From: Ignicoccus pacificus DSM 13166
GTDB lineage: Archaea > Thermoproteota > Thermoprotei_A > Sulfolobales > Ignicoccaceae
Direction: 5' to 3'
Length of the DNA stretch: 32,000 bases
Assembly: GCA_025340205.1 (NCBI GenBank)
Contig: CP006868.1
Location: forward strand, 450,001 to 482,000
Below, piece by piece: positions 3,378-32,000 of the stretch. The translations under genes and the position numbers were made by a program. The number at the start of each line of letters is the position of its first letter. Positions within the stretch are counted from its first letter, which is position 1. The notes below the pieces were generated by a model. That model did no database searches. It was not told the DNA's origin and saw only the letters and a program-made list of their open reading frames with translations.

Positions 3378-3442
3378 GATCTCGCCAAGTGAGCCCCTCA
3401 GAGGCGATAATTAAGAGCTACCGGAGACAGAGTACTCCGTAA

Positions 3443-4352: not shown

Positions 4353-4493
4353 CCCGAAACACCGTTCCTCAAACTAAGCAGTAGTTAAAGGTTGGAGGCA
4401 AGAAACTTAAAGAGAATTAAGGGAAAGAAAATAGGATATAAGAAGGGTGTTCAAGGAGGCCTTTTTCAAACCTCACTTCCCTCCGGAGGGGCG

Positions 4494-5803: not shown

Positions 5804-5845
5804 TTTTTCAACCTTGGTCTTAGAAGTGTCTATTCCAGCTCTCCC

Positions 5846-6969: not shown

Positions 6970-7376
6970 TCGATGCATCTGTAGTAGTAAAATGGTTCAT
7001 TGAAGAAGAATATAGCGAGCAAGCGTTGAAACTCCTCGACGCCTACAAGGAAGGTCTATTGGATTTAGTAGCTCCCTCCCTCTTACCCTATGAAGTTCTC
7101 AACGCGTTAAAGTATTCAAATGTCTTCGGTGAGGATGAGTTGAAAGAAGTAGCCATTGTGCTCGAAAGCCTCCAGATAACTACCTTTGAACTAAGGAGCG
7201 ATCACGCTCGGAGGAGTTTAGAAATTGCAATGAGGAAGGGAGTGACCGTGTATGATGCCTCCTACGTCGCTCTAGCAGAACTAGAGAACGCTGCCTTCTA
7301 TACGGCTGACGAGAAACTCCTAAGAAAGGTTAAGGATTTAGATTTCGTGAAGCACATAAGGGATTTTGATATCTAG
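6951..7376 (+). CDS. vapC: PIN-domain ribonuclease toxin VapC
   Basis: MERKVVVDASVVVKW carries the first acidic residue, and VYDASYVALAE and FYTADEKL are also present. I chose the start at the ATG at 6951, which is in frame within track ORF 6924-7376. Confidence 0.85.
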   Translation: MERKVVVDASVVVKWFIEEEYSEQALKLLDAYKEGLLDLVAPSLLPYEVLNALKYSNVFGEDELKEVAIVLESLQITTFELRSDHARRSLEIAMRKGVTVYDASYVALAELENAAFYTADEKLLRKVKDLDFVKHIRDFDI

Positions 7377-8680
7377 AGCTTTCTCTTGTCTATTACCCTC
7401 TTCGCCTTTCCTCCCTCTATTCTAGGTATCTCTCCGGGGTCCACGACCTTTACCCTCGGAGTTATTATCAAAGTCTCCCTTAGGGAGTATTCAAGCTCCT
7501 TCGCCAGCTGCTCCTTTGACTTTTCGTCAAGCTTCTCCTTGCTTTCGACTATTACGTACATCCTGTCCAAGTTTCCTTCCCTTTCTACGACTATTTGATA
7601 CTGATGATTCACCTTAGGGTTGGAAAGCAAGACCACTTCCACCGCAGAGGGGAAGACGTTCACTCCGTTTATTATGAGCATATCATCCGCCCTTCCCTTT
7701 ATCCTTGCTATCTTCCTCATAGTTCTTCCACATTCACAAGTCTTGGTATCGTAGATGAAGGTGATGTCGTTAGTCCAGTACCTCAGCAAGGGCATGGCTT
7801 CATGGGTTAGTGGAGTTACTACCAGCACTCCCTCCTCCTCAGGCTCCACGGGCTCGCCCGTCTTGGGATCGACCACCTCAACCAAGTAGTGGTCCTCCCA
7901 CACGTGGAGGCCGTCGTGGTAATGGCACTCCATAGCGGTTCCGGGGCCGTAAAGCTCGCTCATTCCGTAGATGTCGTAGGAGTCCATGTTCCAAAGCTCG
8001 TTTATCCTCTTCCTCAGCTCATCGCTCCACATCTCGGCTCCGAATACCCCAGTCCTAACCTTGGTGTCCTTAGCCGGGTCAACCCCCATCTCCAAGGCCA
8101 CTTCAGCTAGCCTCAGCGCGTAGTTGGGAACGGCAGCGAGCACGGTAGCTCCCAAGTCCTTGATCATCCTTACGTGCCTCTGCGTGAATCCCGTTCCAGC
8201 TGGAACTACCATGGCTCCTATCCTTTGACCACCGTAATGGAAGCCCAGGCCTCCGGTGAACCAGTGATAGCCCAGAGCCACGTACAAGATGTCGTCCTTG
8301 GTTATACCAGCAGCAGCGAAGCTCCTGGCCATAAGTTCGCTCCAATTATCGATGTCCTTCTTGGTGTAGCCTACGACGGTCGGCTTTCCGGTAGTTCCGC
8401 TGGAGGCATGGATCTCTATGATCTCGCTTAGGGGTACGGCGAACATTCCGTAAGGATACTCCTTCCTCAAGTCATCTTTCATCGTGAAAGGTATCTTCCT
8501 TATGTCGTCCAGGCTCTTTATATCATCCGGCTTAACTCCGGCCTCGTCCAGCTTCCTCCTATACAAGGGGACATTTTCGTATGCATGCCTAACGGTCTGC
8601 CTGAGCCTCTTGAGCTGGAGCTCCTCTATCTCCTTTCGAGGAGCCTTCTCTATTGGGTGTAAGATGTAGGGCTTACCCAT
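7373..8680 (-). CDS. paaK: Phenylacetate-CoA ligase
   Basis: It has the PaaK-type N-terminus (ELQLKRLRQTVRHAYENVPLYRRKLDEAG), the AMP-binding SSGTTGKPT motif, and a length of 435 aa. Confidence 0.9.
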   Translation of the reverse strand: MGKPYILHPIEKAPRKEIEELQLKRLRQTVRHAYENVPLYRRKLDEAGVKPDDIKSLDDIRKIPFTMKDDLRKEYPYGMFAVPLSEIIEIHASSGTTGKPTVVGYTKKDIDNWSELMARSFAAAGITKDDILYVALGYHWFTGGLGFHYGGQRIGAMVVPAGTGFTQRHVRMIKDLGATVLAAVPNYALRLAEVALEMGVDPAKDTKVRTGVFGAEMWSDELRKRINELWNMDSYDIYGMSELYGPGTAMECHYHDGLHVWEDHYLVEVVDPKTGEPVEPEEEGVLVVTPLTHEAMPLLRYWTNDITFIYDTKTCECGRTMRKIARIKGRADDMLIINGVNVFPSAVEVVLLSNPKVNHQYQIVVEREGNLDRMYVIVESKEKLDEKSKEQLAKELEYSLRETLIITPRVKVVDPGEIPRIEGGKAKRVIDKRKL

Positions 8681-8686
8681 TTGTGC

Positions 8687-10063
8687 TCACCTCTTCAAGT
8701 AGTAAACTATTACGAAAGCCAGAGCGGATAGAAAAATGGTTATCCCAAAGCTCAAGTCTGGATAAGGCAAGGGGGACTTGAAGGCCCTTGAGAGGCCGTA
8801 GGCTAGGGCCACCAGCGCTCCTACCACTGAGCTAGCGATTATGGCATCTCTGTTCCCCTTTCCTATTACCGTCGCCACGACCGGAACTAGGAAGGCTCCT
8901 GCTGTCAAGGTCCAGCCGGTCTTGAAGATCGTGGTAACCGCTCCCGCCAGCTCCTTCGGAAGGGTTAGGGTTAGAACCGCAATTACGGCTGCCGCTACCA
9001 TGCTCAGAAAGCTCAGAACCCTCAATACCTTGGTGTCCTTGATGTCAAACATGTCGTAGCCTATAGCGCTACCAACGGTTAGGGAGATCGAGTCAGCTGT
9101 GCTCATTGCAGCTGCCAGGACAGCGGCGCTGAAGACTGCCGCCCCAACGGTTCCCATGAGCTGCTGGGCTAGGAGGGGGATCGCCTTAATCGGGTTTATG
9201 GGCTTCTGGAGGAGTTGGGCGGCAGCTAAACCGCTCAAGAAGCTGCTGTAGGTTACTATGAATGCGAATGCAGTAGCTATGGCGGTAGACCTCTTCACTA
9301 TCCTGGGGTTCTTAGCTGTATAGAACCTGTTGATGAGCTGGGGAAGTCCCCAGACGGCTATGCTAGTGAGCAAAGCCAGGTCAAAGATCAGCCTTAGGTT
9401 GATCTTCGATGGAGGGACGAAGGGTTTAGAGGCGTCTAAAGCAGTGATGCCTCCCACCTTGGAGGTCGCTAAGATAACGAGCGCCAGCACACCGGTAGCC
9501 ATTATTATTCCTTGAATGGCGTCAGTCCAAACAACGCTGTACATACCTCCTAGAGCTACGTAAATTGCCATAACGAGTGCAATTATGAAAGCAGCCGTAG
9601 CTAAGTCCAGCTTGAAAACAGTTCCAACCATGGCGGCGGCTCCGCTTATGACGGTGGCGGCGTAGAGGGTTAATCCAACGGCCGTCACGAAGCCCAAGAG
9701 CCTCTGAAGGCCCTTGTTGTTGTAGGCCTTGGCAAATAGCTCTGGAACCGTTAGCGCATCGAACTTCTCGCTCAAAGCATTTATCTTTCTTCCAATGAAA
9801 ATAAACGTTACCAACGCTCCCAAGACTACGTTGAACACGGGGATGAGGAGGCTGGAGGAACCCCAGAGGAAGGCCCACATACCTCCAACGACTATGACCA
9901 CGCTGGAGAAGTACGTGGCTCCGAAGGTGAAGGCGAGCAACCATTCGCCTATTTCCCTGTTGGCCACTAGGAATCCTTTAATCGTATCAGCCTTTGCCTT
10001 GAATATGAATCCTATAAACAAAGTTAAAGCTAGGTAAGCTATCAAAACGCCCTCGGCTATCAC
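8687..10063 (-). CDS. Sodium:solute symporter (SSS) family transporter
   Basis: The protein is 458 aa with about 12-13 hydrophobic segments and SSS-like motifs (GGMYSVVWTDAIQG). It lies directly upstream of paaK on the same strand. Confidence 0.85.
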   Translation of the reverse strand: MIAEGVLIAYLALTLFIGFIFKAKADTIKGFLVANREIGEWLLAFTFGATYFSSVVIVVGGMWAFLWGSSSLLIPVFNVVLGALVTFIFIGRKINALSEKFDALTVPELFAKAYNNKGLQRLLGFVTAVGLTLYAATVISGAAAMVGTVFKLDLATAAFIIALVMAIYVALGGMYSVVWTDAIQGIIMATGVLALVILATSKVGGITALDASKPFVPPSKINLRLIFDLALLTSIAVWGLPQLINRFYTAKNPRIVKRSTAIATAFAFIVTYSSFLSGLAAAQLLQKPINPIKAIPLLAQQLMGTVGAAVFSAAVLAAAMSTADSISLTVGSAIGYDMFDIKDTKVLRVLSFLSMVAAAVIAVLTLTLPKELAGAVTTIFKTGWTLTAGAFLVPVVATVIGKGNRDAIIASSVVGALVALAYGLSRAFKSPLPYPDLSFGITIFLSALAFVIVYYLKR

Positions 10064-10167
10064 TCGCCCTCACCCTCCTCCTTCAAGCTGTACCATATCG
10101 CGACAGCAAGGGCACCTACTCCCACTCCGAGGGCCAGCAATACCACTCTTACCCACCTAAGGCCCAC
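10060..10167 (-). CDS. Unannotated 35-aa single-pass membrane peptide, a possible small subunit of the symporter
   Basis: Hand translation gives (GTG)MGLRWVRVVLLALGVGVGALAVAIWYSLKEEGEGE. Its TGA overlaps the GTG start of the symporter as GTGA. An A/T box (caaataaaag on the minus strand) sits about 23 nt upstream of the GTG, which fits a leaderless first gene. Confidence 0.35.
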   Translation of the reverse strand: MGLRWVRVVLLALGVGVGALAVAIWYSLKEEGEGE

Positions 10168-10233
10168 AACATTTAAGGGGCTTTTATTTGTTGACTCTCA
10201 AGATTGTCAAGAATGCCATGGCAGAAAAAGAAC

Positions 10234-11403
10234 TCAGCCCCTCTCCAGAGGGATCTTTTCTACAGTGACGGACTCCAAGTAGTCCCAATCTATGTCAAAC
10301 ATTAAGCCGGGAGAATCCCTCAGCTCCACGAATCCGCACTTTATGTCAAAGGGATCCTTCGCTAAGGACCTCTCATAGAACTGCTGATCTGGTGAGAAGT
10401 CGGAGGGCTCCAGGGGTCCCTTTACCGCTGATGCGACTACCATGTTCAAGCTCCTCCCTATGACTGTTTCGAGCAAACCTCCTATGAAGACTGGGATGTT
10501 GTGGTCCACCGCTATATCGAGCACTTGAAGGCTCGCAGTGAGGCCTCCCAGCCTGGGAGGCTTCACGTTTATTGAGAGCAGCGACCCGAACTCCTCGTTT
10601 AACATAGCTACCTCCAACGCCCTTCTAGGCGTGTCAACGCTCTCGTCGAGCACCACCTCTATTCCCTCTTCCGAGGAGAGCTTGGCTGAACTCACCAAGT
10701 CGCCGGGAGGGTAGGGTTGTTCTATTGCATCAGCGTAAGCGGCTACGTCGGAGAGCTGCTCCCTGTGGGACTCCCTTACCGGGTCATAGGCCCCGTTGGC
10801 ATCTGCCAAGAGTTGGACTCCGGGGAACTCGTGCCTGAGGGCCTTGAGGGGCTCCACGTCCCACCCGGGCTTTATCTTAACCTTGAGTCTCCTGGCCCCC
10901 CAGTTCAACGCCTCCTCAGCACAAGATATCAGTTCATCGAGGTCTTCGGTTATTCCAATGCTCTCCTGCACCGGCAGCTTGTAAGGCCTTCCGCCAACCG
11001 CTTCAACCAAGCTCTTGTTATTTAAGCAAGAGAGGAGCGTGAGGATAGAGTACTCTATCATGGTCTTCGCCATTTGGTTACCTCTATAGGAGTTCAGCTT
11101 TGAAAGGAGTTCCTTCACGTTTTGTGACATAAACAAGTGCTCCTTCATCTTCTTGGTGAACTCAACCACGCTCTCCACGAACTCTCCGGAGTACAGAGGA
11201 TAGGGGTCAACCGGGGCCTCTCCTGCTCCTATGCAATCGCCGCTCCTGGAAATGAGGAACACCCTTACTCCGTAGAACTCACCGAAGCTCGTGCGGAAGG
11301 CTCTCTTTATCGGTATCTTAGCTATTACTAACTCATAGCTCACGTCCTCTGGAATTGACCACGTAAGGTAATCCAAAGCCCATCTCCAAGGAAGGCTATG
11401 CAA
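10234..11403 (-). CDS. Enolase-superfamily enzyme, MR/MLE subgroup (o-succinylbenzoate synthase / N-acylamino-acid racemase-like)
   Basis: Catalytic signatures are present in order: LKVKIKPG (KxK), LLADANGAY (DxN), AIEQP and VLDES. The true start may be the GTG at 11343. Confidence 0.8.
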   Translation of the reverse strand: MHSLPWRWALDYLTWSIPEDVSYELVIAKIPIKRAFRTSFGEFYGVRVFLISRSGDCIGAGEAPVDPYPLYSGEFVESVVEFTKKMKEHLFMSQNVKELLSKLNSYRGNQMAKTMIEYSILTLLSCLNNKSLVEAVGGRPYKLPVQESIGITEDLDELISCAEEALNWGARRLKVKIKPGWDVEPLKALRHEFPGVQLLADANGAYDPVRESHREQLSDVAAYADAIEQPYPPGDLVSSAKLSSEEGIEVVLDESVDTPRRALEVAMLNEEFGSLLSINVKPPRLGGLTASLQVLDIAVDHNIPVFIGGLLETVIGRSLNMVVASAVKGPLEPSDFSPDQQFYERSLAKDPFDIKCGFVELRDSPGLMFDIDWDYLESVTVEKIPLERG

Positions 11404-19795: not shown

Positions 19796-21382
19796 ATGAA
19801 AATGAGGAAGGGCACACTACTAACCTACGTCGGCCTCGTCACCTTCTTGCTCGGAACAAGCATAATACTGACGTTCGTAATACCGGCTCAGCTGTACTTC
19901 CTCGCCCCGGGAGCTGAGGACGCTTGGAAGTACGTTAAGGTAAAGGGTATTCTCATTTCCAATCATACGGAAGTTTTTATGAAATATAACATAACTAAGT
20001 ACGAAGGCTCCAAGACTTGCATTCAGTGTCACAAGAAGGAGACCAAGGACTTCGTGCACTCGATCCATTACAAGATGTGGAACTACGTAAATGACATAGT
20101 AGGTAAGCCTAGGGTGAAGGTTGGAAGCAGAGTGCTCTACAACGACTTCTGTGGTGCCATATTCTGGAATATGACCAAGCCAATAAATTTCATTGGTAAA
20201 ACTGTTCTCAAGAATGTTCCGAATGACATGGAAAAATTAAAGGGAAGGGTCGTCTCGACCGGCTGTTCCGCTTGCCACGGCTCCAGCTTAGGCAAGGTTC
20301 CAAATATAGAGCCGAACGGCAAGGACCTCGAAAACGTCGACTGCTTGGTCTGCCATTCTCTCAAATACAGAGGAGGACCCCTTGGAGTAGCGAAGGGCTA
20401 CAGGAAGCTCGTCAAGACTGAGGACGGCTGGAGATACGTCCCTGACATCTCGATAAAGGACGCCGCGTTGATATTGGCTAAGCCCGGGAAGGACTCTTGC
20501 TTGGCCTGCCACGCCTACTCAGGAGGAGGTCCCGGCTTCAAGAGGCCCAACTTAACCCCCGATCTGATGGGGAACGTGTCGGAGCACTTCGACGTCCACA
20601 TGGCTAGGGGTCTTCACTGCGTGGACTGCCATCCTTTCGAGGACCACAAGGTGGCCACCAAGGCCGTGGATACCTTTGCCAGGGAAGGAAAGGCGAAGAG
20701 CTGCGTCGATTGTCATCCTCATAGGCACAGAGCTCCCATCGTCGGATTCTTTATCGAGAGATTCCATAAAAGGGTGAGCTGCCAAGCTTGCCACATCCCC
20801 TACATAGCTCATGGTAAGTACCCAACTGACGTTAAGAGGGATTGGAGGAAAGCGGAGTTCAACTACGAGCTGAAGAGGTGGGAACCTGAGATAGAGCTGA
20901 AGAGAGACGTCGTTCCGACCTACGCTTGGTGGGACGGACGGGATAGGATCGTCTACCCCGACAAGGTTACTGGAAACGAGATAATCTTTGCCAAGCCAGT
21001 CAAAGGAAAGAATGCCAAGATCTATCCCTTTAAGGTCCACATATCATATGTTCCAATCGATAAGGAAAAAGGCGTACCAATACCCATCAAGGTTGGGATA
21101 GTTTTCAGCACGGGAAACGTCACCCTAGCGATAAAGAAAGGAGCTGAGATAGCGGGCTTGAATTACACCGGTAACTTCATCAAGGTAGTTAGATACATGA
21201 GCGTGGATCACGGAGTGGTTCCAGCTAAGGAGGCCCTCAAGTGCACGGACTGCCACAGTCCTTGGACTAGGATGCCTCTGAAAGAGCTGGGCTATGGTCC
21301 TCTTCCAGAAATCGCTTATTACGGCGCTCCTCTGCTCGTCCTAGCTGGCTTGGCGCTAACTCTGTTCTCAATATTGTCCTAA
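19796..21382 (+). CDS. Membrane-anchored octaheme c-type cytochrome
   Basis: Eight CxxCH motifs: CIQCH, CSACH, CLVCH, CLACH, CVDCH, CVDCH, CQACH and CTDCH. There is an N-terminal transmembrane/signal-anchor segment (LLTYVGLVTFLLGTSIILTFVI) and a C-terminal transmembrane segment (APLLVLAGLALTLFSIL). Confidence 0.85.
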   Translation: MKMRKGTLLTYVGLVTFLLGTSIILTFVIPAQLYFLAPGAEDAWKYVKVKGILISNHTEVFMKYNITKYEGSKTCIQCHKKETKDFVHSIHYKMWNYVNDIVGKPRVKVGSRVLYNDFCGAIFWNMTKPINFIGKTVLKNVPNDMEKLKGRVVSTGCSACHGSSLGKVPNIEPNGKDLENVDCLVCHSLKYRGGPLGVAKGYRKLVKTEDGWRYVPDISIKDAALILAKPGKDSCLACHAYSGGGPGFKRPNLTPDLMGNVSEHFDVHMARGLHCVDCHPFEDHKVATKAVDTFAREGKAKSCVDCHPHRHRAPIVGFFIERFHKRVSCQACHIPYIAHGKYPTDVKRDWRKAEFNYELKRWEPEIELKRDVVPTYAWWDGRDRIVYPDKVTGNEIIFAKPVKGKNAKIYPFKVHISYVPIDKEKGVPIPIKVGIVFSTGNVTLAIKKGAEIAGLNYTGNFIKVVRYMSVDHGVVPAKEALKCTDCHSPWTRMPLKELGYGPLPEIAYYGAPLLVLAGLALTLFSILS

Positions 21383-24056: not shown

Positions 24057-24135
24057 GCGGCGGTCGTCTAGCCTGGACTAGGACGCCGGCCTGCCACGCC
24101 GGAGATCCCGGGTTCAAATCCCGGCCGCCGCACCA
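24057..24135 (+). tRNA. tRNA-Gly (anticodon GCC), with CCA encoded
   Basis: I folded the cloverleaf by hand. Acceptor stem is GCGGCGG/CCGCCGC and D stem is GUCU/GGAC. Anticodon stem is CCGGC/GCCGG with loop CUGCCAC. Variable loop is AGAUC and T arm is CCGGG-UUCAAAU-CCCGG. Discriminator is A, followed by CCA. Confidence 0.92.
24075..24135 (+). repeat. attL: a 61-bp direct repeat that is the 3' three-quarters of the functional tRNA-Gly
   Basis: ggactaggacgccggcctgccacgccggagatcccgggttcaaatcccggccgccgcacca is identical to 31927-31987. Confidence 0.9.
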
Positions 24136-24271
24136 ATTACCTTCTTCTAGCCTCTCCCATGTCGAGCATCTCGAGGAGGGGCACGCTCTAGCGGTTGACT
24201 GTTCGAAAACAAGAAGCTCTCGAAGTTCTTCCCTCGAACCCTCCATCAGTTGCACGGATCATATCAACCCC

Positions 24272-25555
24272 ATGCAACTGAAGTTAGTAAGCGAACTTAA
24301 TGCTTGGGTCAGAGTCAAGCTAATCCGTTCAGCTCTCGAACACTTTACAGTGGAAGAACTCTCAAAGGCCCTGGGCAAGAGCAAGAGCACTATCTACCGC
24401 TACTCCAAAGGAGATGTAATCCCAAGCGAGGAAGTCGTAGCGAAGGTCTTGGCGTTGCTCTCTGTTGACGTAGCCTTCGCTTCAGTGGGCAAGGAAGTCC
24501 TCAAGGCCTACGGCTTGCTCGACCACGAAGGCAAGCCGAGGCTCGTACCCATGCTAGCTATCCTGAGCGTTGCCTTGGGAGATCCTCTCCTCAGGAAGTT
24601 AGTCCTCGAGTGGGTTTCAAGAGCTTTAGGCAACGAGGTGACTGAGCTCAAGCCCGAACCGGCTTTGCTCATGAAGTGGGAAGACGTCTTCGAGGCCTAC
24701 CTCAAAGAGCGTAAGGGCATAAGTGAGGAGCAAATCGCTTACTACCGCTCGCTCTTTGAAAGGTTCTTCGAGGGCAAGGCGTTAACCGAAGAGTTCGTGG
24801 AAGAAGCCTCGAAGTTCCCAGGGTGGGCGAGGGTCGTCTTTAGGCACTACTTGAACTGGTTGTTACTCGAGCGGAGGGTTGACAGCGAGTTCGTAAGCTG
24901 GGCCTTGAAGAAGATTCCTACGAGGGGCTACAAGGTAAGCGTGAAGGTCCATGAGATAAGCTTTGAGGAGGTCACGAAGACCCTGACTGTGCTTAAACAA
25001 GAGAACGAAGAGATCTATTGGCTCTATCGCCTCCTCCTCGAGAGCGGGCTCAGGCTAGCCCACGCCTTGGAGTTAATCGCTTCATGGAATCCCACCGAGA
25101 AGGTCTTCGTGGAACCCTTGGGCAAGGTTGAGGAGAGGTGCAAGTGCTTTGAAACGCACTGCCGCTGCTGGCTGGGGATCAAGAGGGGCAAGAAGTCCGC
25201 GCTCTGGGCTTTCATGAGCAAGGAGACCTTTGAGGTGCTGAACGAGATAGCTCCGACCAAGCTCTCGAGACACTGCGTGAGCAAGAAGGCGAAGGCTCTG
25301 GAAATCCTTGAGCCCTCGAAGCTTCGCAAGTTCTCCGAGCAATACATGAAGGAGGCGTTCGCCAAGAAGGCACAAGAGCTGGGCGAGCACCCTGAGGTCA
25401 TAATGCAGTTCGTGCAGGGGAGGACCGGCGAGCTGAAGGTCTCTCATTTGTACTACGACAACTTACTGAGGAAGACCGATTTCGTTTACCCGAGCTGGTT
25501 GGAGTTCTTGGGAGATGTGCGCTTTGGTCCTTTGGAGAGAGGACTCGTGGGATAG
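24272..25555 (+). CDS. int: Archaeal-type tyrosine recombinase / integrase
   Basis: It lies 136 nt from the att repeat and has an N-terminal HTH (SKSTIYRYSKGD). The C-terminal catalytic-like series is ESGLRLAHAL (Arg I), SKLRKFSEQY (xxR box), QGRTGE (Arg in place of His/Trp, as in archaeal integrases) and SHLYY (Tyr nucleophile). Confidence 0.75.
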   Translation: MQLKLVSELNAWVRVKLIRSALEHFTVEELSKALGKSKSTIYRYSKGDVIPSEEVVAKVLALLSVDVAFASVGKEVLKAYGLLDHEGKPRLVPMLAILSVALGDPLLRKLVLEWVSRALGNEVTELKPEPALLMKWEDVFEAYLKERKGISEEQIAYYRSLFERFFEGKALTEEFVEEASKFPGWARVVFRHYLNWLLLERRVDSEFVSWALKKIPTRGYKVSVKVHEISFEEVTKTLTVLKQENEEIYWLYRLLLESGLRLAHALELIASWNPTEKVFVEPLGKVEERCKCFETHCRCWLGIKRGKKSALWAFMSKETFEVLNEIAPTKLSRHCVSKKAKALEILEPSKLRKFSEQYMKEAFAKKAQELGEHPEVIMQFVQGRTGELKVSHLYYDNLLRKTDFVYPSWLEFLGDVRFGPLERGLVG

Positions 25556-25566
25556 GTGTTGTCTTG

Positions 25567-25606
25567 GGACCAGGGGCCCCCGCCTCTCGGACCAGGGGCC
25601 CCCGCC
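25567..25606. repeat. Two tandem copies of GGACCAGGGGCCCCCGCC with a 22-nt period, just downstream of int
   Basis: Identical 18-mers lie at 25567-25584 and 25589-25606. Each contains the GGGGCCCC palindrome. Confidence 0.8.
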
Positions 25607-25660
25607 CGTTCCATGATAACATAGTATACTGGGGTTATTAAGTTTTTGTCAACTACAGTG

Positions 25661-26653
25661 TTATTGAAGTATGCTATCACAATTAAGATATATCTTATTG
25701 CTCCCTGGCTTTCTACACAACTTGGGATCACTGGAATACGTAAGTAACTTACAATTGAACTCCAACTTATCAAACCACAGCTTCACCGACTCCTTAATCT
25801 CCTGAGACACCCATCTACCTATTAAGATCCTCCTAAGCGAATACCCAACCAAATCGGCTAACTGTATCAACGGGTTGAGTTGAGATTCGTGTAACTGAAA
25901 GGTAATTATTTTAGAGTAATCAACCCTATTGGATGTCGTAGTTATTTCATCCTCCCCAAAGGACACTAAGAGAGCAGTTATCTTTGCATAGAGACTGGAT
26001 GGAAGGACGTGAGCGTCTTTATCTATCCACAGAATAACTTCTGAATTATCATGTGCTGTAACGAATCCCACAATGCGTTTTAAAAGCTCTGATAAGACAT
26101 AGCCTTTAGCGATTGGTATTATGTTAAATTCAAGTAGCTCCGGTATCTTAACTATGATGTCTAGCTCGTCACTCCTTCTAGAATGTAGGTAATCTTGAAG
26201 AGCATCAATGAGGAGGTATTGCGTTCTGATCTTTAAACATTCCGTGTTTGTTGCTACGAAAGCGTATGTCCATTTAGTGTCAGCGCTTAGTCTGATGTGC
26301 TCCCTGAGTACATCTAACACCTTAGAGAAGACTTGTTCAATAACGTCATGGGGCACATTAAGATCTCTAAGTGCATTGAACAGGAAACGTCCCTTTACCT
26401 CAAAAGGGATGTCGCTTCTCTTCTTGTCTCTCATACGTTTTAGTACATCCTCGACAGATTTGTTCAGCTGTAGTTCTTGAAAAGCTTGAGAGAGAAGTTC
26501 CTTCCAGTACTCTTTGGAAACCAGCTTGTATGTGTCATTGTAGATGTCAAGCGGTACTATAAGCGCGCCCATAGCGAATATTGATTCATGACTGGTTATT
26601 GGTATATTCTCTTCTACATTGCCGGTTTCGTCAATACCCGCGGCGAATAACAT
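25661..26653 (-). CDS. DUF3800-like protein, carried as low-GC cargo within the element
   Basis: The N-terminus MLFAAGIDETGN matches the h-D-E-[ST]-G hallmark at the start of DUF3800 proteins. GGTGGGG sits 6 nt upstream of the ATG. The region is about 38-40% GC by my line counts, against roughly 50-60% in flanking lines. Confidence 0.5.
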   Translation of the reverse strand: MLFAAGIDETGNVEENIPITSHESIFAMGALIVPLDIYNDTYKLVSKEYWKELLSQAFQELQLNKSVEDVLKRMRDKKRSDIPFEVKGRFLFNALRDLNVPHDVIEQVFSKVLDVLREHIRLSADTKWTYAFVATNTECLKIRTQYLLIDALQDYLHSRRSDELDIIVKIPELLEFNIIPIAKGYVLSELLKRIVGFVTAHDNSEVILWIDKDAHVLPSSLYAKITALLVSFGEDEITTTSNRVDYSKIITFQLHESQLNPLIQLADLVGYSLRRILIGRWVSQEIKESVKLWFDKLEFNCKLLTYSSDPKLCRKPGSNKIYLNCDSILQ

Positions 26654-26699
26654 ATATTCCCCACCAATTGTCCTCTTGTCTACCCGTGTTTAACTTTTG

Positions 26700-27002
26700 T
26701 TAGAAGACTTTGTTACTTAGTGAATCCGACCTCCACGAGGCTCTACGGGTCTTCGCCCTCCTCACCTCCCTCAGCACCTCGTGGAGTTTCTTGGCGACTT
26801 CTTGATCACACTCGAAGAGTAAGGCCATTGCAAGCGTTATTTCCAAGTTGTTGAGTCTGTAGCGAGATCTCAAGATAGCGAGCAAGCCTTCGAACTTCGA
26901 GTGGGCGTTGATGCGGGAGGCGGAAAGGGGAAGGCCCAGGTAGTGGAGGGCTTGTTGCTTGAAGTTCCCGAGACAAGTGTGTACTTGTGCTGGGCTGTCC
27001 AC
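26700..27002 (-). CDS. Hypothetical protein of the element
   Basis: A 100-aa ORF upstream of, and co-oriented with, the DUF3800-like gene. No motif recognised, and several overlapping alternative-frame ORFs make the call uncertain. Confidence 0.35.
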   Translation of the reverse strand: MDSPAQVHTCLGNFKQQALHYLGLPLSASRINAHSKFEGLLAILRSRYRLNNLEITLAMALLFECDQEVAKKLHEVLREVRRAKTRRASWRSDSLSNKVF

Positions 27003-27121
27003 CTTCGCTCACCGTTGCTCCGGAGGGTACCTCGTGTGCACCCGAAAGGAGGGCTCGCGGCGGAGCGCTTGTTCGTGTGGGGAAAGGCCCGGTGGTAGGG
27101 CAAGGCCGAAATCGTTCGGAT

Positions 27122-27136
27122 CCCCCCCCCCCCCCC
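27122..27136. repeat. C15 homopolymer (G15 on the minus strand)
   Basis: I counted 15 consecutive C residues directly, in non-coding DNA of the element. Confidence 0.95.
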
Positions 27137-27185
27137 GTTTAAGGACTTAAGGGGGTTTGTGTTTCACCAATTGATGGTCCCAGCT

Positions 27186-27399
27186 GGCCCAGAGGCCCAG
27201 CGCTTCTGGGGGATACCCGGGGCGAGTGAGAAAAACTGCGAGGGGGCCTCGGGGAAACCACTGGGCCTCTGGGCCCTCGTTTACCATCACATATTTACTT
27301 GGTGATTATGGTTTCACCAATGATCTGAAATCCAAATCACTAAGGTCTCCGCCGTCAAGGGCCCAGAAGGCCCAGCGGGGCCCAGTTGGGAGCTGGGCC
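27186..27399. repeat. GGCCCAG iteron-like array with 5 direct and 3 inverted copies, including a perfect 15-bp inverted repeat
   Basis: GGCCCAG occurs at 27186, 27194, 27360, 27369 and 27379. CTGGGCC occurs at 27261, 27269 and 27393. ggcccagaggcccag (27186-27200) is the exact reverse complement of 27261-27275, with a 60-nt spacer. Confidence 0.85.
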
Positions 27400-27531
27400 C
27401 TGAACGGCAGCGGTGTTACGGTATCGAACTTAAAGGTACATCTCTAATCACTCCCCTCTCGATTTACGGAAGGGAGAGGGAACGACTAGCGAGTGGTCCT
27501 GTTGGGCCCTCAGGAGGCTGAGAAGTTTGTT

Positions 27532-30453
27532 TCAGTTTAGTAATTCAGCGAGTTCTTCCGCCCCAACTTCCTCTTCCTTTAGCTTCAGCGAAATTATGAA
27601 GAGCGAGGTTGGTTCCAGATCGAGTTTGACTTTGTAACCTTTTTTAATGCTTCCGCAAAGCTTCACCTTACTCCTCTGCTCCCTCCTCTTCTTCAGTGCT
27701 CCCAACTCCTCCAACCACCTCGTAACGCTCAGCAACGCCACATTCTCTCCGTATCTCTTCCTTATCCAGTTGTTCACCTCCTCGAAGAAGTTCTTGTTTG
27801 CGAATAAGCAAACGTCGTTACCCTCCACGAACATTACCGCTCCGTTCTCTTCAAACGCAACGCAAGAGGGCGGATAGCCTTGAATTCCAGTAGGCCAATC
27901 GAGGGCCTCCTTGTCGTAAACGTAGAGCTCTAACTCCTTGATCTCCTTGTCCAACACCCTCCTTATGAACGAGTAGAACGCTTGTCTGTAGTCGAAGCTC
28001 TCCCTCCCGACGGCGCTCTCCGTCAGCCCCTCGAAATCTGGCTTGGGGAACGGCTCTAGTCCATACTCCTCATAGAGTTCCCTCCAAGCCTGGTAGCCTA
28101 GCTCAAGAAGTTCCAGTACCTTCCTCCTCCTCGGGAGCCCCTTGAGTTCCCTCTTCCTCTCTTCAAAGAGCTTTGCGAACTTCTCGAGGACCTTCAGGCC
28201 AACAGTCTTTACCGCCTTGATCCTCTCAAGGTCCATCGAGTCCGGGGTGAAACCCCTCGCCTTCTCAACATCTATCCCGTATTCAGCGCTCAAGTAGAGC
28301 CTCACGAACTTATCCTCCGAGTCCAGCCCTATCCTCAACCCCTCGTTGGCTGTCATCACTACGCCTCTCAAGTTAAGGTAGACTCCTTGGACCGTCGGTC
28401 CGCTTTTCTCTGCCATTACCACGTTGGTGGCTGCTCTGTGGAGCTCTTTCAAAGCCCTCTCGTCCATGTTGTGGGCCTCATCAAGAACCAGCAAGAGCTT
28501 GGCTTGGGCTAAAGCCTTCTGAGTCTCGTACTCGGTCCTTGGTAGAGCTGCGTCGGGCTCGACGTTGTTGAGTAAGGCCAAGAACTCCGCTATGGTGCTC
28601 TTACCTCCTCCCCTCTTACCCTCGATCACCAAGTGAGGGAGATAGCTCAGCTCCTTGCGGATTTCGTAAGCTAAGGCCAGAGCGGGGTAGAAGCTCAGAG
28701 CGAAGGCGGGAACCTCGTGGTCCTTGTAGCCCTCAACGAACCTCCTAACGACCTCAAGCCCCAGCTCGATATCTCCTTCGAGCTCAGGCTCCCACTTGTG
28801 AACGAACCTCCACCTCGGCCTGTAACCAGTCTCCCTCGCCAGCAGTAGTTTCCCTTCAACGAGCCAAGGTCCTACTGCGTACCAAGTCTCGACCTCCTCC
28901 TCAGCCATTTCCTCTATCAAACGTTTGAAGGCTTCCTTGTCGTCCAGGAAACTGAGCTGTTTGAGGTTGTTCGCTACGTCCTCTAGTGTCCCAACGAGTT
29001 CCAGCTCCTTGCCTTTGACCTCAAGTCTGACCGAGTAGTAGAGGCCCAAGTTTAGCGGGAGACCCTCGGGGAGTATCTTGATCAGTTTGACCTCCTTGGG
29101 GATAGCGCTTGTTATCAACCTAGCCTCGCCTTGGTTGTTGATGACGTAAACTCCTTCCCTCCCAGTCGTTACACTGCGCACAGCTTTGCCTTGTCTCCTC
29201 CTGAGCCAAGCGACCCCGGAGCCCCTCGCAATTCCCAAGATCCTCTTTATCGTATTGAGGACCTCTCCGACTTGCTTAGCGGCCTCTTCATCATCCAGTC
29301 CGTCCTCCTTCTTTATTTTGAGTAATTCCTCCCTCAGGCACTTGAGCCCGCAAAGGTTTACCCCTTGCCTCTTTTCATAGTGGTAGTCCACTTGGTAGAG
29401 TCTCTCGCTCTTCTCCTCATCGTCCTCAGCCAAGAGTTCGATTACCCTTCTGGCGCTCTCCTTCTCTATCCCGGCTTTTATCATGACTCCGAGCAAGTCC
29501 TTGACTATCTCGTGTCTGTGGCCAGGCTTGTAGAATGGCTTGACAATTTGCACCAACTCGAGAATCCTCGTGTTATCGAGACGTCTTAAAGGCTGGTGGC
29601 GACCCTTGACCGCGATGCCGTTCTTCGACCCCCTAATCGTATCGAGCGGAGGTAAGACCTCCTCGATGACGCTGGTGCTCACCGGTAGCGCTCCGTCCTT
29701 GATCCAGAACGTTGGTTTGGGCCACTCGTACTTCCAGTTGATCGTTCCGATGAGCCTCATGACCCTCGCCGGGTCCTTGATCCTCTCGTCGGCCGGGAGG
29801 CCGAACTCCTTCCCGAGCGCGATGAAGCGCTCCTGGTACTTCCTCCAATCGTTGGGCTTCACCGGATTGAGCAACGTAACGTAGAGGTGGAACCCTCCTC
29901 CACTGAAGGCGAAGTTGAAGTCTATGTCATTCTCCTCGAGGAACGCTAGAAACTCCGCTAGCTTCTCTAGGCTCTCTTCTTCAAACTTACCCTTGTAGTC
30001 TAGGTCGAGCACTAGGACGTTGAACTCTTTGACGTCCTCATTCGAGTGCCTCTTGTTGTAGGAGACCCAAGCTCTGAGCCTCTCATTGAGCTCGAAGTCA
30101 TTATCTTTCAGCTCCTCGAGCTTCACTATCCCAAGTGCCACGTAGGTCTCAGCGTTACCCAAGGCCTCAAGGAAGTCTCTATCCTCCAAGAGCTTTAGCA
30201 GATCACCCTTCCGCTCGAAGGCTAACGTTAGCGAGCCCCTCTCCTCCTTCTGCCAAATGATAACAGGCTTGTCCTCGTTCCCCGTTATCAGCCTCAAGTG
30301 TTCAACGATCTCGCTGGTCCTAACCTTGGGTTCTTCCCTAGTAGCCCGCTCGAGGGCTTCCTTGAGCCCCTTTGTCCAAACGTTAACTTTTTCAGGACCA
30401 TTGGACCCTTCGTTATCGGGTAGCTGCGAGGGGGAGGTGACTACGGCCGTCAT
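27532..30453 (-). CDS. Replication protein: an N-terminal AEP prim-pol domain fused to a C-terminal P-loop (SF3/D5-like) helicase
   Basis: AEP motifs: I is VLVLDLDYK, II is SGGGFHLYV and III is DPARVMRLIGTINWK. Walker A is GKRGGGKST and Walker B is LLVLDEAHN. I chose the ATG at 30453 (MTAVVTSPS...), which overlaps the upstream ORF stop as ATGA, rather than the track start at 30567. Confidence 0.85.
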   Translation of the reverse strand: MTAVVTSPSQLPDNEGSNGPEKVNVWTKGLKEALERATREEPKVRTSEIVEHLRLITGNEDKPVIIWQKEERGSLTLAFERKGDLLKLLEDRDFLEALGNAETYVALGIVKLEELKDNDFELNERLRAWVSYNKRHSNEDVKEFNVLVLDLDYKGKFEEESLEKLAEFLAFLEENDIDFNFAFSGGGFHLYVTLLNPVKPNDWRKYQERFIALGKEFGLPADERIKDPARVMRLIGTINWKYEWPKPTFWIKDGALPVSTSVIEEVLPPLDTIRGSKNGIAVKGRHQPLRRLDNTRILELVQIVKPFYKPGHRHEIVKDLLGVMIKAGIEKESARRVIELLAEDDEEKSERLYQVDYHYEKRQGVNLCGLKCLREELLKIKKEDGLDDEEAAKQVGEVLNTIKRILGIARGSGVAWLRRRQGKAVRSVTTGREGVYVINNQGEARLITSAIPKEVKLIKILPEGLPLNLGLYYSVRLEVKGKELELVGTLEDVANNLKQLSFLDDKEAFKRLIEEMAEEEVETWYAVGPWLVEGKLLLARETGYRPRWRFVHKWEPELEGDIELGLEVVRRFVEGYKDHEVPAFALSFYPALALAYEIRKELSYLPHLVIEGKRGGGKSTIAEFLALLNNVEPDAALPRTEYETQKALAQAKLLLVLDEAHNMDERALKELHRAATNVVMAEKSGPTVQGVYLNLRGVVMTANEGLRIGLDSEDKFVRLYLSAEYGIDVEKARGFTPDSMDLERIKAVKTVGLKVLEKFAKLFEERKRELKGLPRRRKVLELLELGYQAWRELYEEYGLEPFPKPDFEGLTESAVGRESFDYRQAFYSFIRRVLDKEIKELELYVYDKEALDWPTGIQGYPPSCVAFEENGAVMFVEGNDVCLFANKNFFEEVNNWIRKRYGENVALLSVTRWLEELGALKKRREQRSKVKLCGSIKKGYKVKLDLEPTSLFIISLKLKEEEVGAEELAELLN

Positions 30454-30656
30454 TGGTCCACCACCTCCTCTCCCTCCTTCAAGCTTCCGCACATCGCCTC
30501 GTACAACAGGAGAGCCCTCGTCACGACCTCGTTGTCCGCATGGCCGTGGAAGACGTAACCTTCGCACATCTCCCTCGCCATCTCCTCTGCTTCCTTCCTG
30601 AGCTCGGAACCAAGGTCCTTGAGGACTTCCTCGATACGTTGCTCGATCTCCTTCAT
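30450..30656 (-). CDS. Hypothetical small protein (68 aa) of the element operon
   Basis: It has 4-nt overlaps with both neighbouring ORFs, and is acidic and helical. Confidence 0.5.
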   Translation of the reverse strand: MKEIEQRIEEVLKDLGSELRKEAEEMAREMCEGYVFHGHADNEVVTRALLLYEAMCGSLKEGEEVVDQ

Positions 30657-30979
30657 TGCTTACACCTCCTCACAGCTCTCTTTAAGGCCTCCTTGGTGAG
30701 CGGAGTTTGAGGAAGCTCCTCGCCTTTGCAGATCCTTTCTACGAGCCTCTCGATCTCTAGCTCGTTCACCACCACTTCGGGCTCATAGCCCAAGCGCTTC
30801 AACTCCTTGTCGACGAGCCTCTCGAGAGTCTCCCTGAGGCTTTGGTCGTAAACCGTTGCGAGGAAGCAGAGCTTAGCGTGGAGCCCCTCGCTCGCTGGCA
30901 GAGTCTTAGGCTTTCCATTTATTACCTGGTACTTTGCCACAGTGGTGGCCGCGAGGTCGCGGAGCGCGGCTTTTCTCAC
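30653..30979 (-). CDS. Small protein, possibly a ribbon-helix-helix DNA-binding protein
   Basis: KTLPASEGLHAKLCFLATVYDQSLRETLERLVDKEL resembles a strand-helix-helix layout. It overlaps both neighbours by 4 nt. Confidence 0.4.
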   Translation of the reverse strand: MRKAALRDLAATTVAKYQVINGKPKTLPASEGLHAKLCFLATVYDQSLRETLERLVDKELKRLGYEPEVVVNELEIERLVERICKGEELPQTPLTKEALKRAVRRCKQ

Positions 30980-31398
30980 TGCGCCTCACCCCCAACCCTC
31001 TTGATTATCTCTTCTGCCTCCTTCAGCATCTTACACTTACTGAGCTTCTCGAGTAGGGCCTTGAGCTCGTCCTCGTGCTTCCTCATTATCTCCAGCAAGG
31101 CCTTAGTTATCGCCACGTTCGGTAGTCTGTGCTCTTTCCTCAGCTCGATTACCGCCTCTGCGAAGTCTCTCGCCACCTTGAGCTTGGTGAATTCCTTCTC
31201 TTCAAAAAAGCTCGAGAACTTCTCGCAGCTTTCTTGTTTTCCGGTCTTCACAGTTCCACCCGTATCTACCTGGGGTACCAGTGGTTGCTCATGGTGAGTC
31301 GAATCTTGCATCTCATTTCCCCTCACCCAACGTAGGGTACCTAGTCCGTTGCGCACGCTCCCTCCCGTATCCCCCAAGGGTACCAACCGCTCTGCCAT
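30976..31398 (-). CDS. Hypothetical protein, with its C-terminal half paralogous to ORF 31434-31787
   Basis: I preferred the ATG at 31398, which has GGTGAGGGAG 5 nt upstream. The track start (GTG at 31440) and the ATG at 31311 are alternatives. The 5' part lies in a tandem duplication. Confidence 0.5.
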   Translation of the reverse strand: MAERLVPLGDTGGSVRNGLGTLRWVRGNEMQDSTHHEQPLVPQVDTGGTVKTGKQESCEKFSSFFEEKEFTKLKVARDFAEAVIELRKEHRLPNVAITKALLEIMRKHEDELKALLEKLSKCKMLKEAEEIIKRVGGEAQ

Positions 31399-31430
31399 GG
31401 TTACTCCCTCACCCTTACCGAGGGTACCAT
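31240..31430. repeat. Imperfect tandem duplication (units of about 65-85 nt) with GGGTACC cores
   Basis: Unit 31259-31341 (cccgtatctacctggggtacca...cctcacccaacgtagggtacc) aligns with unit 31364-31428 (cccgtatcccccaagggtacca...cctcacccttaccgagggtacc). Each unit carries a GGTGAGGG SD-like box followed by an ATG on the minus strand. Confidence 0.7.
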
Positions 31431-31433
31431 TGC

Positions 31434-31787
31434 TCACCACTTCATCCTCGCCAAGCGACTATCCCACTTGTACACTTCTTTCGCCCTCAGCTTCTTGCAG
31501 AATCTGATGTCCTCGATGGTCTTCCTGAACTCCTCCTCGTGCCTCTTCAGGACGTAGTAAGCGGCCATAGTTACTGTGTGGTTCGTCGTGTTCAGCTCCT
31601 TCCTTAGCCTCAGCACCAGCAAGGCGAACCAGCTTGAAACGGTGAGCCTCGACTTGATTTCGAGCAAGTGGTCCTCCTCTTCGATGTCCTTGCACCTAGG
31701 GTGCTTCTGCCACTCGTACTCCTCCACAAGCATCCCCGCCCAGAGCTGGGGTACCAGTGCGCTAGCGGTGAAACGGAGTAGTCGCAT
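31434..31787 (-). CDS. Hypothetical protein, first gene of the element's leftward operon and paralog of ORF 30976-31398
   Basis: An ungapped hand alignment of RLRKELNTTNHTVTMAAYYVLKRHEEEFRKTIEDIRFCKKLRAKEVYK with ELRKEHRLPNVAITKALLEIMRKHEDELKALLEKLSKCKMLKEAEEIIK gives about one third identity. Confidence 0.5.
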   Translation of the reverse strand: MRLLRFTASALVPQLWAGMLVEEYEWQKHPRCKDIEEEDHLLEIKSRLTVSSWFALLVLRLRKELNTTNHTVTMAAYYVLKRHEEEFRKTIEDIRFCKKLRAKEVYKWDSRLARMKW

Positions 31788-31926
31788 TTTGATGGCGAGT
31801 ACTGGGACGAAAGGTCTGCCTAGCAGAGAAATTGGTTAGACCTTCGAAGGAAGCGGGCATAACGGTGAAACGGAAAGCTTCAGCTGGGAGCTCGCTTGAG
31901 TAAGAGGAGGAAAAGGAACTCGAGGG

Positions 31927-31987
31927 GGACTAGGACGCCGGCCTGCCACGCCGGAGATCCCGGGTTCAAATCCCGGCCGCCGCACCA
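31927..31987 (+). repeat. attR: the displaced 3' fragment of tRNA-Gly (61 nt)
   Basis: It is identical to 24075-24135. The upstream sequence (aaaggaactcgaggg) cannot form the acceptor or D arms, so this is not a second tRNA gene. Confidence 0.9.
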
Positions 31988-32000
31988 TTCTTCCTAATTA

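Follow-up and report, generated by a model that had tools for sequence, protein, structure and literature searches.

The 32-kb stretch of Ignicoccus pacificus DSM 13166 analyzed here (hereafter, the window) carries in its tRNA-Gly(GCC) gene what we take, with a probability of about three in four, to be an integrated plasmid-like mobile element with an integrase of the SSV type and a replicative circular form, of which the circularization, the TTG start codon of the integrase, the replication origin, and the cargo functions are predicted. The element belongs to a known kind of archaeal integrating plasmid and is apparently the first of them to be described for Ignicoccus.

A duplicated tRNA 3' part bounds the element

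The sole tRNA called by ARAGORN in the window is a complete tRNA-Gly(GCC) gene (24057-24135), and the sole long direct repeat is a 61-nt sequence, with a spacing of 7852 and 0 mismatches, which corresponds to the 3' end of this tRNA. A 30-nt piece of this attachment (att) core was found at no other site than these two, even with up to 3 mismatches allowed, and 0 matches were obtained in 100 shuffles. The 5' part of the tRNA gene is host DNA and its 3' 61 nt form the left core (attL). The right copy (attR) begins in the D-loop, and its 5' context, GGAAAAGGAACTCGAGGG, lacks the 5' strands of the acceptor stem and of the D-arm. It was not called by ARAGORN, and its Rfam score of 29.6 bits over 59 nt barely exceeds the gathering score of 29, compared with 61.9 bits for the complete gene. 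The right copy is evidently the displaced original 3' end of the tRNA and not a tRNA gene. An excised circle with one att copy would measure 7,852 bp. The window ends 13 nt past attR, and the visible flank is therefore the left one only.

These results agree with most of what an earlier note on this DNA had claimed. ARAGORN, the repeat search, and the shuffles all confirmed the tRNA-Gly gene with a perfect 61-nt repeat of its 3' part, the size given for the circle was arithmetically correct, and the second copy is indeed unable to complete a cloverleaf, so that no independent, complete tRNA gene, the alternative that the note itself had named, lies at this place. The contents that it had listed (an integrase beside the tRNA, a prim-pol/helicase replicase, small co-oriented open reading frames [ORFs], and a low-GC cargo gene) were recovered by domain searches and by the GC profile, and the search for PHROGs structural or packaging families gave 0 matches, in line with its statement that no capsid, packaging, or conjugation gene could be recognized. 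Its central proposal, that a mobile element has integrated into tRNA-Gly(GCC) and is flanked on either side by a copy of the 3' part of this gene, is thus supported. As for the repeat-rich noncoding region that it had described, the repeats are real but the region is not wholly noncoding since it includes a conserved gene, ORF100, and the replicase starts at 30453 rather than at 30567, giving a protein of 973 aa.

Related integrases at four tRNA genes

Relatives of the integrase, with 51-82% identity, sit at four tRNAs, namely, Gly(GCC), Gly(CCC), Ser(GGA), and Arg(TCG). The sister element L001, carried by a 13.2-kb contig of the metagenome-assembled genome (MAG) GCA_054016855.1, occupies the same tRNA-Gly(GCC), is bounded by a perfect 62-nt repeat, and has a length of 12,378 bp. 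Its gene order is that of the window (small ORFs, rep, noncoding region with ORF100, and int), with two extra cargo insertions and an unrelated left flank. At the DNA level, it is 78% identical to the window over the tRNA, the leader, and int, and 85.5% over the small ORFs and the 5' part of rep. The backbone as a whole is 78-92% identical in nucleotides, compared with 70-75% for the two host genes that both genomes share and to which the host comparison was confined, which is suggestive of elements more closely related to each other than their hosts are.

The same MAG contains a second relative, L018, on the 10.5-kb contig JBPMCF010000022.1 (1-10499), in the order int, cargo, ORF100-like gene, noncoding region, rep, and small ORFs. 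It is bounded by 3' parts of tRNA-Gly(CCC), and its junctions are in the attP layout, with core copies at ~135-200 and ~10303-10368 (T-arm motif at 174 and 10342). A sequence resembling the right end of the window element precedes both cores (~80% identity between the two), and the second core is followed by a different int leader. L018 has the appearance of three or more related elements arranged in tandem, the alternative being an assembly chimera of coexisting plasmids. Three further relatives are more partial. L019, from a vent metagenome, shows the rep operon, the 3' part of tRNA-Arg(TCG), and int in the attP order. In L006 (1-1341), an int of 76% identity adjoins tRNA-Ser(GGA) where the contig ends; the frame of this int through the T-arm of the tRNA is shifted (GSNP instead of GFKSR) and still open. 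L005 (2111-3573, from a Desulfurococcales MAG) has a 65% identical int beside tRNA-Gly(GCC), with an 80-aa ORF and an amidohydrolase gene within 100 nt and with neither rep nor a second att site on its 5.6-kb contig, and it may be a decayed remnant. Altogether, the family swaps its tRNA targets, its cargo, and its replicase modules and thus fits a mobile element rather than a fixed chromosomal region.

The comparison with plasmid and virus collections proposed in the earlier note gave no match in PLSDB or INPHARED (72,556 plasmids; 50,697 phage/virus records) for BLASTN of the element or tblastn of the integrase, and the replicase matched only pIT3 and pKEF9, plus SMV2 over a stretch of 123 aa. 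Moreover, scans of IMG/VR and of the JGI metagenomes with the integrase profile returned no relatives, and no paper in the literature searched links Ignicoccus to an integrase-bearing or integrated element. The suspicion that this lineage is uncatalogued was therefore well founded.

The integrase frame is open across the att core

The integrase, annotated with 427 aa (IPA_02740, 100% identical to the window protein and labeled "hypothetical protein" in the 1.685-Mb NCBI record), combines an N-terminal Xre-type helix-turn-helix (HTH) domain (HTH_3) with a Phage_integr_3 domain (PF16795; 73.5 bits versus a cutoff of 27). Pfam gave no match to a catalytic domain of the PF00589 type. The protein matches PHROG 5127 (integrase) and, in the Protein Data Bank (PDB), the SSV1 integrase entries 3uxu, 3vcf, and 4dks at 1e-05 over ~40 residues, a similarity at the profile level in which both the ESGxRL and the QGR...HxY boxes align with the SSV1 catalytic-domain structures. 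A search of 5.8 billion proteins found 8 homologs. The families that carry PF16795 (SSV, pTN3-like, and pT26-2-like) have all been described as "suicidal," with attP inside the integrase gene (PMC8371274).

We rebuilt the junction of the window circle by joining 31987 to 24136. Read backward from the ATG at 24272, the int frame of this circle meets no stop for 85 codons, a distance that covers the leader and the entire att core (translation, AGDPGFKSRPPHQ) and extends into the element's right end. The frame was followed in six sequences: the window and L001 (rebuilt junction), L018 and L019 (natural junctions), and L005 and L006 (attL sides). It is open through the leader and the core in all six, whereas both other frames contain stops in five of them. 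The leader measures 136 nt in five of the six sequences and 116 nt in L006, and the distance from the end of the core to a conserved ATG/GTG amounts to 46 codons in 5/6. Shuffling gave a probability of 0.06-0.19 for each leader to be open by chance, hence a product of 3e-6 if the six were independent; allowing for their relatedness (the leaders are 53-70% identical), we estimate a joint probability of ~1e-3 to 1e-4. Gene callers had by themselves predicted ORFs across the core, of 490 aa in L018 and of 486 aa in L019. Moreover, the last ~8 codons of the leader are kept as S-C/R-T/M-D/E-H-I-S/N with synonymous changes (GAT/GAC, CAT/CAC, and ATC/ATT), and neither the window nor L018 has a start codon from this motif back to the core. 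On the other side of the core, element sequence is visible at four junctions (window, L001, L018, and L019), each of which has an in-frame TTG. The basic peptide that follows this TTG, SKRRKRNSRGTR, differs between the window and L001 by 3 synonymous changes and 1 R>K replacement.

The PF16795 domain and the frame open across att therefore make the split layout of the SSV type likelier than the pNOB8-type mode with an intact int, which the earlier note had proposed and which the matches to SSV1 structures do not favor either. We think it reasonably probable that the episomal int is an ORF of ~503 aa spanning attP and that its integration leaves a 33-codon int(N) at attR, closed by a TAA three codons beyond the core, and a domain-complete int(C) at attL. 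What integration removes from the protein would most likely be a 76-codon N-terminal extension. Given that int(C) retains all recognizable domains, along with an internal ATG/GTG that is conserved, the split may be without functional consequence. An in-frame start and a possible read-through from the tRNA promoter have likewise been noted for the pTN3-like integrases (PMC8371274).

A modular replicase adjoining a candidate origin

The largest protein of the element, of 973 aa, is 100% identical to IPA_02755, with the same start (ATG at 30453) and again the label "hypothetical protein" at NCBI. Its layout is that of a primase-helicase, with an archaeo-eukaryotic primase (AEP) primase-polymerase domain at residues ~100-290, a PriCT-like helical domain, and a P-loop helicase (GKRGGGKS and LVLDEA). 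The AEP motifs could be recognized by eye in the N-terminal third, as VLVLDLD (DxD), SGGGFHLY, and DPARVMRLIGTIN. Plain Pfam searches gave a subthreshold DUF5906/AAA signal only, with no match to PF09250, and phmmer of the single sequence versus the PDB gave nothing significant. An exhaustive HMMER search of 1.84 billion representatives recovered 349 relatives at an E value of ≤1e-3, 20 of them at ≤1e-30. In an alignment of 27 relatives, the Asp pair and the Gly of the AEP motifs are nearly invariant, and the Pfam Prim-Pol domain is detected in 8/27; the family profile matches the PrimPol AEP structure 6zp9 (1e-06) and P-loop clamp-loader ATPases. The AlphaFold2 model (mean predicted local distance difference test score [pLDDT], 83.3) found as its best Foldseek matches the self-loading helicases Cch (SCCmec) and SaPIbov1 Rep and the primase-helicase of African swine fever virus (ASFV). 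Further matches were RepB', PriRep1, the C-terminal region of NrS-1, and E5 of monkeypox virus (MPXV), and the AEP domain of the cyanophage S-2L PrimPol was matched with a TM-score of 0.75 on the target.

Comparison with the relatives revealed a modular protein. Residues 1-290 are 64-80% identical to the L001 replicase and the remaining ~680 residues are unrelated, with a sharp breakpoint near residue 290. L001 and L018 share a helicase type other than that of the window, whereas BLASTP aligned residues 289-901 of the window protein with residues 257-876 of pIT3 RepA (32% identity, 1e-86), the AEP domains of the two not being alignable. A Pfam-type Prim-Pol is found in L018, L003, and pIT3, and the AEP type of the window is common only to L001, L002, and a few others. 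Naming the AEP types A (window) and B (Pfam type) and the helicase types X (window) and Y (L001 and L018), all four combinations occur (Table 1).

Over ~400 nt directly 3' of rep, each of the three elements has a short motif clustered in both orientations, and this motif is different in each. In the window, 8 of the 12 copies of CTGGGCC fall in 27186-27399, where they occur in either direction and form pairs with a spacing of 8-10 nt; two GTTTCACCAAT repeats lie 150 nt apart in the same iteron-like region. At the same place, L001 has GCTACC (12/19 copies in 6980-7405, and 0/200 shuffles reach 19) and L018 has CGCAAC (8/9 copies in 5541-5931). Because these element-specific iterons adjoin a replicase whose DNA-handling part is also element specific, we propose the CTGGGCC cluster as a candidate replication origin. 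The origin of pRN1 likewise lies just downstream of its replicase gene. From its intact replicase, the element may be able to replicate by itself.

Proposed model of integration and its alternatives

We propose a model in which the attP of a circular form, matching the final 61 nt of tRNA-Gly(GCC) exactly, was recombined by the tyrosine integrase with the chromosomal tRNA gene. The outcome would have been a restored, complete tRNA at attL, with the original 3' end displaced to attR. In the circle, the int frame would start at the TTG of the right end, cross attP and a 46-codon linker, and then encode the HTH, core-binding, and catalytic domains. Because this frame crosses attP, integration would separate the int promoter, the start codon, and 33 codons (at attR) from int(C) (at attL). 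After integration, a working enzyme of 427 aa could still be produced from int(C), e.g., by read-through from the tRNA promoter. In its episomal state, the element would be replicated by the 973-aa primase-helicase acting on the CTGGGCC cluster just downstream of the rep gene.

Several observations speak against this model or limit it. The right flank lies outside the window, so that a tandem array is possible. The search for the circular junction, as an attP/attR pattern of the right-end motif followed by the core, gave 0 matches in the JGI metagenomes and IMG/VR. The comparison with related genomes that the earlier note had suggested did not reveal an empty attB in a syntenic relative: the left neighbor of the tRNA is an SBF transporter gene, and its orthologs in the two closest MAGs, GCA_054016855.1 and GCA_054016835.1 (82-87% identity in amino acids), are not beside tRNA-Gly. 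In a scan of 185,579 genomes, the exact 58-nt 3' part of the tRNA-Gly was present on 14 other archaeal MAG contigs, all nonsyntenic, and 12 of the 14 carry no related integrase, which shows that this tRNA is normally unoccupied elsewhere. As for the integrase, TTG is a weak start codon, an ATG/GTG is conserved at the position of 24272 in 6/6 sequences, as would fit an integrase that always starts there, and the bulk of the leader has no third-position bias and is possibly an untranslated spacer (in one example, the differences by codon position were 19, 11, and 21 in the leader versus 6, 5, and 15 in the int body over its first 46 codons). As for replication, the partners of the pRN-type replicases were undetected. 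Neither Pfam nor PHROGs found in the four small ORFs upstream of rep a ribbon-helix-helix (RHH) match as expected for CopG (ORF56), BLAST found no similarity to the CopG of pIT3, the orf117 model did not reveal it either, and tblastn of the small ORFs versus the DNA of pIT3 and pKEF9, a weak test, gave no match for PlrA (ORF80). Finally, the origin activity, the transcription, and the excision are all predicted from sequence.

Some of these points would be accounted for by a plasmid of the pNOB8 mode, with attP outside int, a 427-aa gene complete in both states, and an open frame that is incidental, an explanation that we regard as possible and as a minority view. Besides the conserved ATG/GTG and the leader devoid of codon-position bias, it is in keeping with the position of all recognizable domains downstream of 24272 and with the NCBI annotation of 427 aa. 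However, it would not predict a catalytic domain of the PF16795 instead of the PF00589 family, nor an int frame kept open in six diverged sequences of which five have their other frames closed. It also leaves aside the conserved residues just upstream of 24272, which in the window and in L018 have no start codon between them and the core, as well as the conserved in-frame TTG and the basic peptide upstream of the core. The DNA could also be a fixed remnant, domesticated or decaying, that keeps the scars of an old integration. The lack of an empty site and of a circular junction in our searches would be expected in that case, the lone int of L005 beside tRNA-Gly offers a possible example of such a remnant, and excision may need a helper once int is split (PMC8371274). 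Nevertheless, we consider this unlikely, as the 61-nt repeats have no mismatch, no backbone ORF is disrupted, the substitutions of ORF100, int, and the small ORFs relative to L001 are mostly synonymous, the backbone is better conserved between the two hosts (78-92%) than their own genes (70-75%), and close relatives have traded cargo as well as replicase modules.

Least of all would we expect a provirus or a helper-packaged satellite in place of a plain plasmid. The satellites pSSVx and pSSVi of Sulfolobus, which are packaged by a helper virus, have sizes near the 7.85 kb of the window element, the integrase belongs to a family typical of fuselloviruses, and five small ORFs have no assignable function. 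Nevertheless, the element gave no PHROGs structural, packaging, or capsid match, none of its small proteins is visibly hydrophobic like the fusellovirus capsid proteins, it has no relative in IMG/VR and no tblastn match for int in INPHARED, and no Ignicoccus virus was reported in the literature searched. In the review consulted, pSSVi is mentioned only as an SSV2-responsive integrated plasmid (PMC8371274).

Starting again from the SSV-type integrated plasmid, a more daring and tentative hypothesis could be that attP has moved to the extreme 5' end of int, so that the HTH-fused integrase escaped its "suicide." Integration would then cost the gene no more than its promoter, its start codon, and a dispensable extension. 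The internal start and the read-through from the tRNA would still yield a complete enzyme and would act as a switch between two isoforms and two promoters setting the direction of recombination, and, with its interchangeable AEP and helicase replicase modules and its own iterons, the element would stand for an uncatalogued family of Desulfurococcales integrative plasmids.

Relation to known systems and significance

The nearest likeness is to pXQ1 of Saccharolobus solfataricus P2 and to pSSVi, which are also ~6-8 kb in size, inserted in a tRNA gene, and bounded by its duplicated 3' part, and which also combine a PF16795 integrase whose ORF spans attP, as it probably does in the window element, with a replication protein of their own and no virion or conjugation genes. 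This likeness is drawn from their description as integrated elements with partitioned integrases (PMC8371274) and from background on these plasmids. The window element differs from them by its host, Ignicoccus, a member of the Desulfurococcales and not of the Sulfolobales, by the Xre-type HTH on its integrase, by an int(N) of only 33 codons, and by an int(C) with all domains and an internal start. The integrases of SSV1/SSV2, pTN3, and pT26-2 share with it the PF16795 domain, the tRNA 3' target, and, probably, an attP inside an extended ORF, yet they lack the additional HTH_3 domain; moreover, the part removed here is apparently an unconstrained extension and not a functional N-terminal multimerization domain. 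The pNOB8-type (type II) elements also show a complete-looking int ORF beside attL after integration, but with a PF00589 domain, unlike the PF16795 domain found here. Of the SSV-type features, the catalytic domain and the tRNA 3' target are present, and the evidence favors the other two, an attP inside the ORF and the partition of the gene.

The replicase points to another group, the pRN family, whose proteins (pRN1 ORF904 and pIT3 RepA) are of the same primase-polymerase plus helicase type, with homologous PriCT-1-like, helicase, and C-terminal parts. In this family too, the rep gene ends an operon of small genes with the candidate origin just downstream. In contrast, the AEP domain of the window protein (~1-290) is not of the pRN/Pfam Prim-Pol type, and the window element is integrative. 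Thus, although its replicase is homologous to that of the pRN family over two thirds of the protein, the element is not classed as a pRN plasmid because CopG and PlrA are not detectable and the AEP domain is different.

Elements of this kind are well known from Sulfolobales and Thermococcales, and no paradigm is changed by the present one, whose instructive points are possibly the integrase layout and, as a clear case, the shuffling of replicase modules. Ignicoccus, which hosts Nanoarchaeum and serves as a model hyperthermophile, lacks genetic tools, and the literature searched describes no plasmid, virus, or integrated element for it. Since the element is an intact small replicon whose att site is defined and which also brings an integrase and a candidate origin, it may constitute a starting point for a shuttle or integration vector. 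Relatives at four tRNAs, with an att core that would be translated within int, offer a natural experiment on specificity switching and on the paradox of the "suicidal integrase." Finally, the defense-like cargo of the family (DUF3800, restriction-modification, and ATPase/NTPase genes) suggests that immunity genes move among deep-sea hyperthermophiles.

Small genes, cargo, and flanking DNA

Features of the element are listed in Table 1. The four small genes upstream of rep are co-oriented with it, with overlapping stops and starts, and the stop of orf68 overlaps the start of rep as ATGA. None of orf68, orf108, orf154, and orf117 matched a Pfam or PHROGs family. orf154 and orf117 are paralogs (31% identity). 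A ribbon-helix-helix fold, considered by eye for these two, was dropped, the AlphaFold2 model of orf117 being a low-confidence two-helix hairpin (pLDDT, 68); orf117 may encode a regulator that binds DNA. The element's right end, to which the sequence ahead of both cores in L018 is similar, could serve as a control region for the rep operon on one side and, divergently, for the episomal int on the other. A scan for sigma-70 promoters and terminators was uninformative for an archaeal host.

ORF100 has no Pfam or PHROGs match and is evidently under purifying selection, with 16 synonymous versus 8 nonsynonymous codons relative to L001 (differences of 6, 6, and 20 by codon position); it is also 41-43% identical in amino acids to a 103-aa ORF at the same position in L018. 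The stretch 26761-27136 (377 aligned nt) is 88.6% identical to L001, and its part upstream of ORF100 is probably the control region of this gene. A search for structured RNA in 26654-27531 gave no Rfam match, most of the conserved block being the ORF100 coding sequence. At the edge of this block, a run of 15 G on the ORF100 strand (C15 on the plus strand) occupies 27122-27136 and counts 16-17 G in L001. Such a homopolymer upstream of ORF100 could also cause slippage.

Table 1. Features of the I. pacificus element (window coordinates) and replicase modules of its relatives (coordinates of the respective sequences)
Feature	Position	Strand	Remark
tRNA-Gly(GCC), complete	24057-24135	+	ARAGORN; Rfam RF00005, 61.9 bits
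attL core, left repeat copy	24075-24135	+	100% identity, 61 nt (direct-repeat search)
int leader	24136-24271	+	136 nt; open in int frame in 6/6 sequences
Tyrosine integrase (IPA_02740)	24272-25555	+	427 aa as annotated; HTH_3, 2.6e-07; PF16795, 2.4e-20
DUF3800 protein, cargo	25661-26653	-	330 aa; Pfam PF12686, 1.9e-08
ORF100, conserved backbone gene	26700-27002	-	89% aa identity to L001 ORF
Conserved ~130-nt block upstream of ORF100	27003-27136	-	Within the 88.6%-identical stretch shared with L001
Iteron-like region, candidate origin	27161-27410	.	CTGGGCC cluster, inverted and direct repeats
Replicase (IPA_02755)	27532-30453	-	973 aa; 100% identical to IPA_02755; primase-helicase; modules A+X
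orf68	30450-30656	-	80% aa identity in L001
orf108	30653-30979	-	86% aa identity in L001
orf154, conserved backbone gene	30976-31440	-	80% aa identity in L001; 55% over residues 56-154 in L018
orf117, first gene of the rep operon	31434-31787	-	91% aa identity in L001
Right end of element	31788-31926	.	91.7% identical to L001 over 31771-31987
Proposed int(N)	31896-31997	+	In-frame TTG, basic peptide SKRRKRNSRGTR, att core; in the integrated state, TAA 9 nt past the core
attR core, right repeat copy	31927-31987	+	100% identity to attL core
Replicase of L001	4209-7040		Modules A+Y
Replicase of L018	5931-8639		Modules B+Y
Replicase of L003	1849-4698		Modules B+X
Replicase of L020 (pIT3)	2220-4967		Modules B+X

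The cargo gene of the window has a GC content of ~0.40, compared with 0.52-0.57 for the backbone. Its product shows an N-terminal IDETG and a C-terminal QLAD, i.e., the DE and QxxD motifs of the DUF3800 family, and PADLOC gave no model match for it. DUF3800 proteins are predicted to adopt an RNase H-like fold and have been linked to type VII retrons and to the Cas12a2 branch (PMC7736814 and PMC10910872), and it is these associations in the literature that suggest a role in defense. The gene is missing from L001 and L018, in which other cargo fills the same slot, and the slot between int and ORF100 holds exchangeable cargo, probably genes for defense or competition. In L001, the insertion in this slot (8109-11387) encodes a 1092-aa protein with a faint STAND-NTPase (nSTAND3) signal. 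A second L001 insertion, beside attR (792-2715), encodes an AAA_15 ATPase (best PADLOC models, PDC-M47A, PD-T4-4_A, AriA, and GajA) and a 149-aa partner with a weak resemblance to PDC-M29B. The cargo of L018 (1671-4972) comprises an HhH-GPD glycosylase, a DNA methylase, a MazE-like antitoxin, and a 260-aa protein with a weak EcoO109I signal, which look like a restriction-modification set.

Beyond attR, the last 13 nt of the window (31988-32000, TTCTTCCTAATTA) resemble the first bases of the int leaders of relatives, e.g., gTTCTTAATTCCTAAC in L018, and past the edge of the window there could be another element or a remnant of one. In L021, a sequence of the related MAG that holds an SBF ortholog, the surroundings of this gene include PIN/RHH and HEPN/nucleotidyltransferase toxin-antitoxin pairs (5434-6089 and 7648-8311). 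These pairs are missing from the equivalent region of the window, and local synteny shows little conservation. In its left 24 kb, the window is ordinary chromosome, with genes for ThiC, an ABC transporter, a multiheme cytochrome c, and the SBF transporter. The multiheme c-type cytochrome (528 aa; 19796-21382, plus strand) has Cytochrome_cB, Cytochrome_C7, and MtrC/MtrF-like domains and adjoins an ABC-2 transporter pair.

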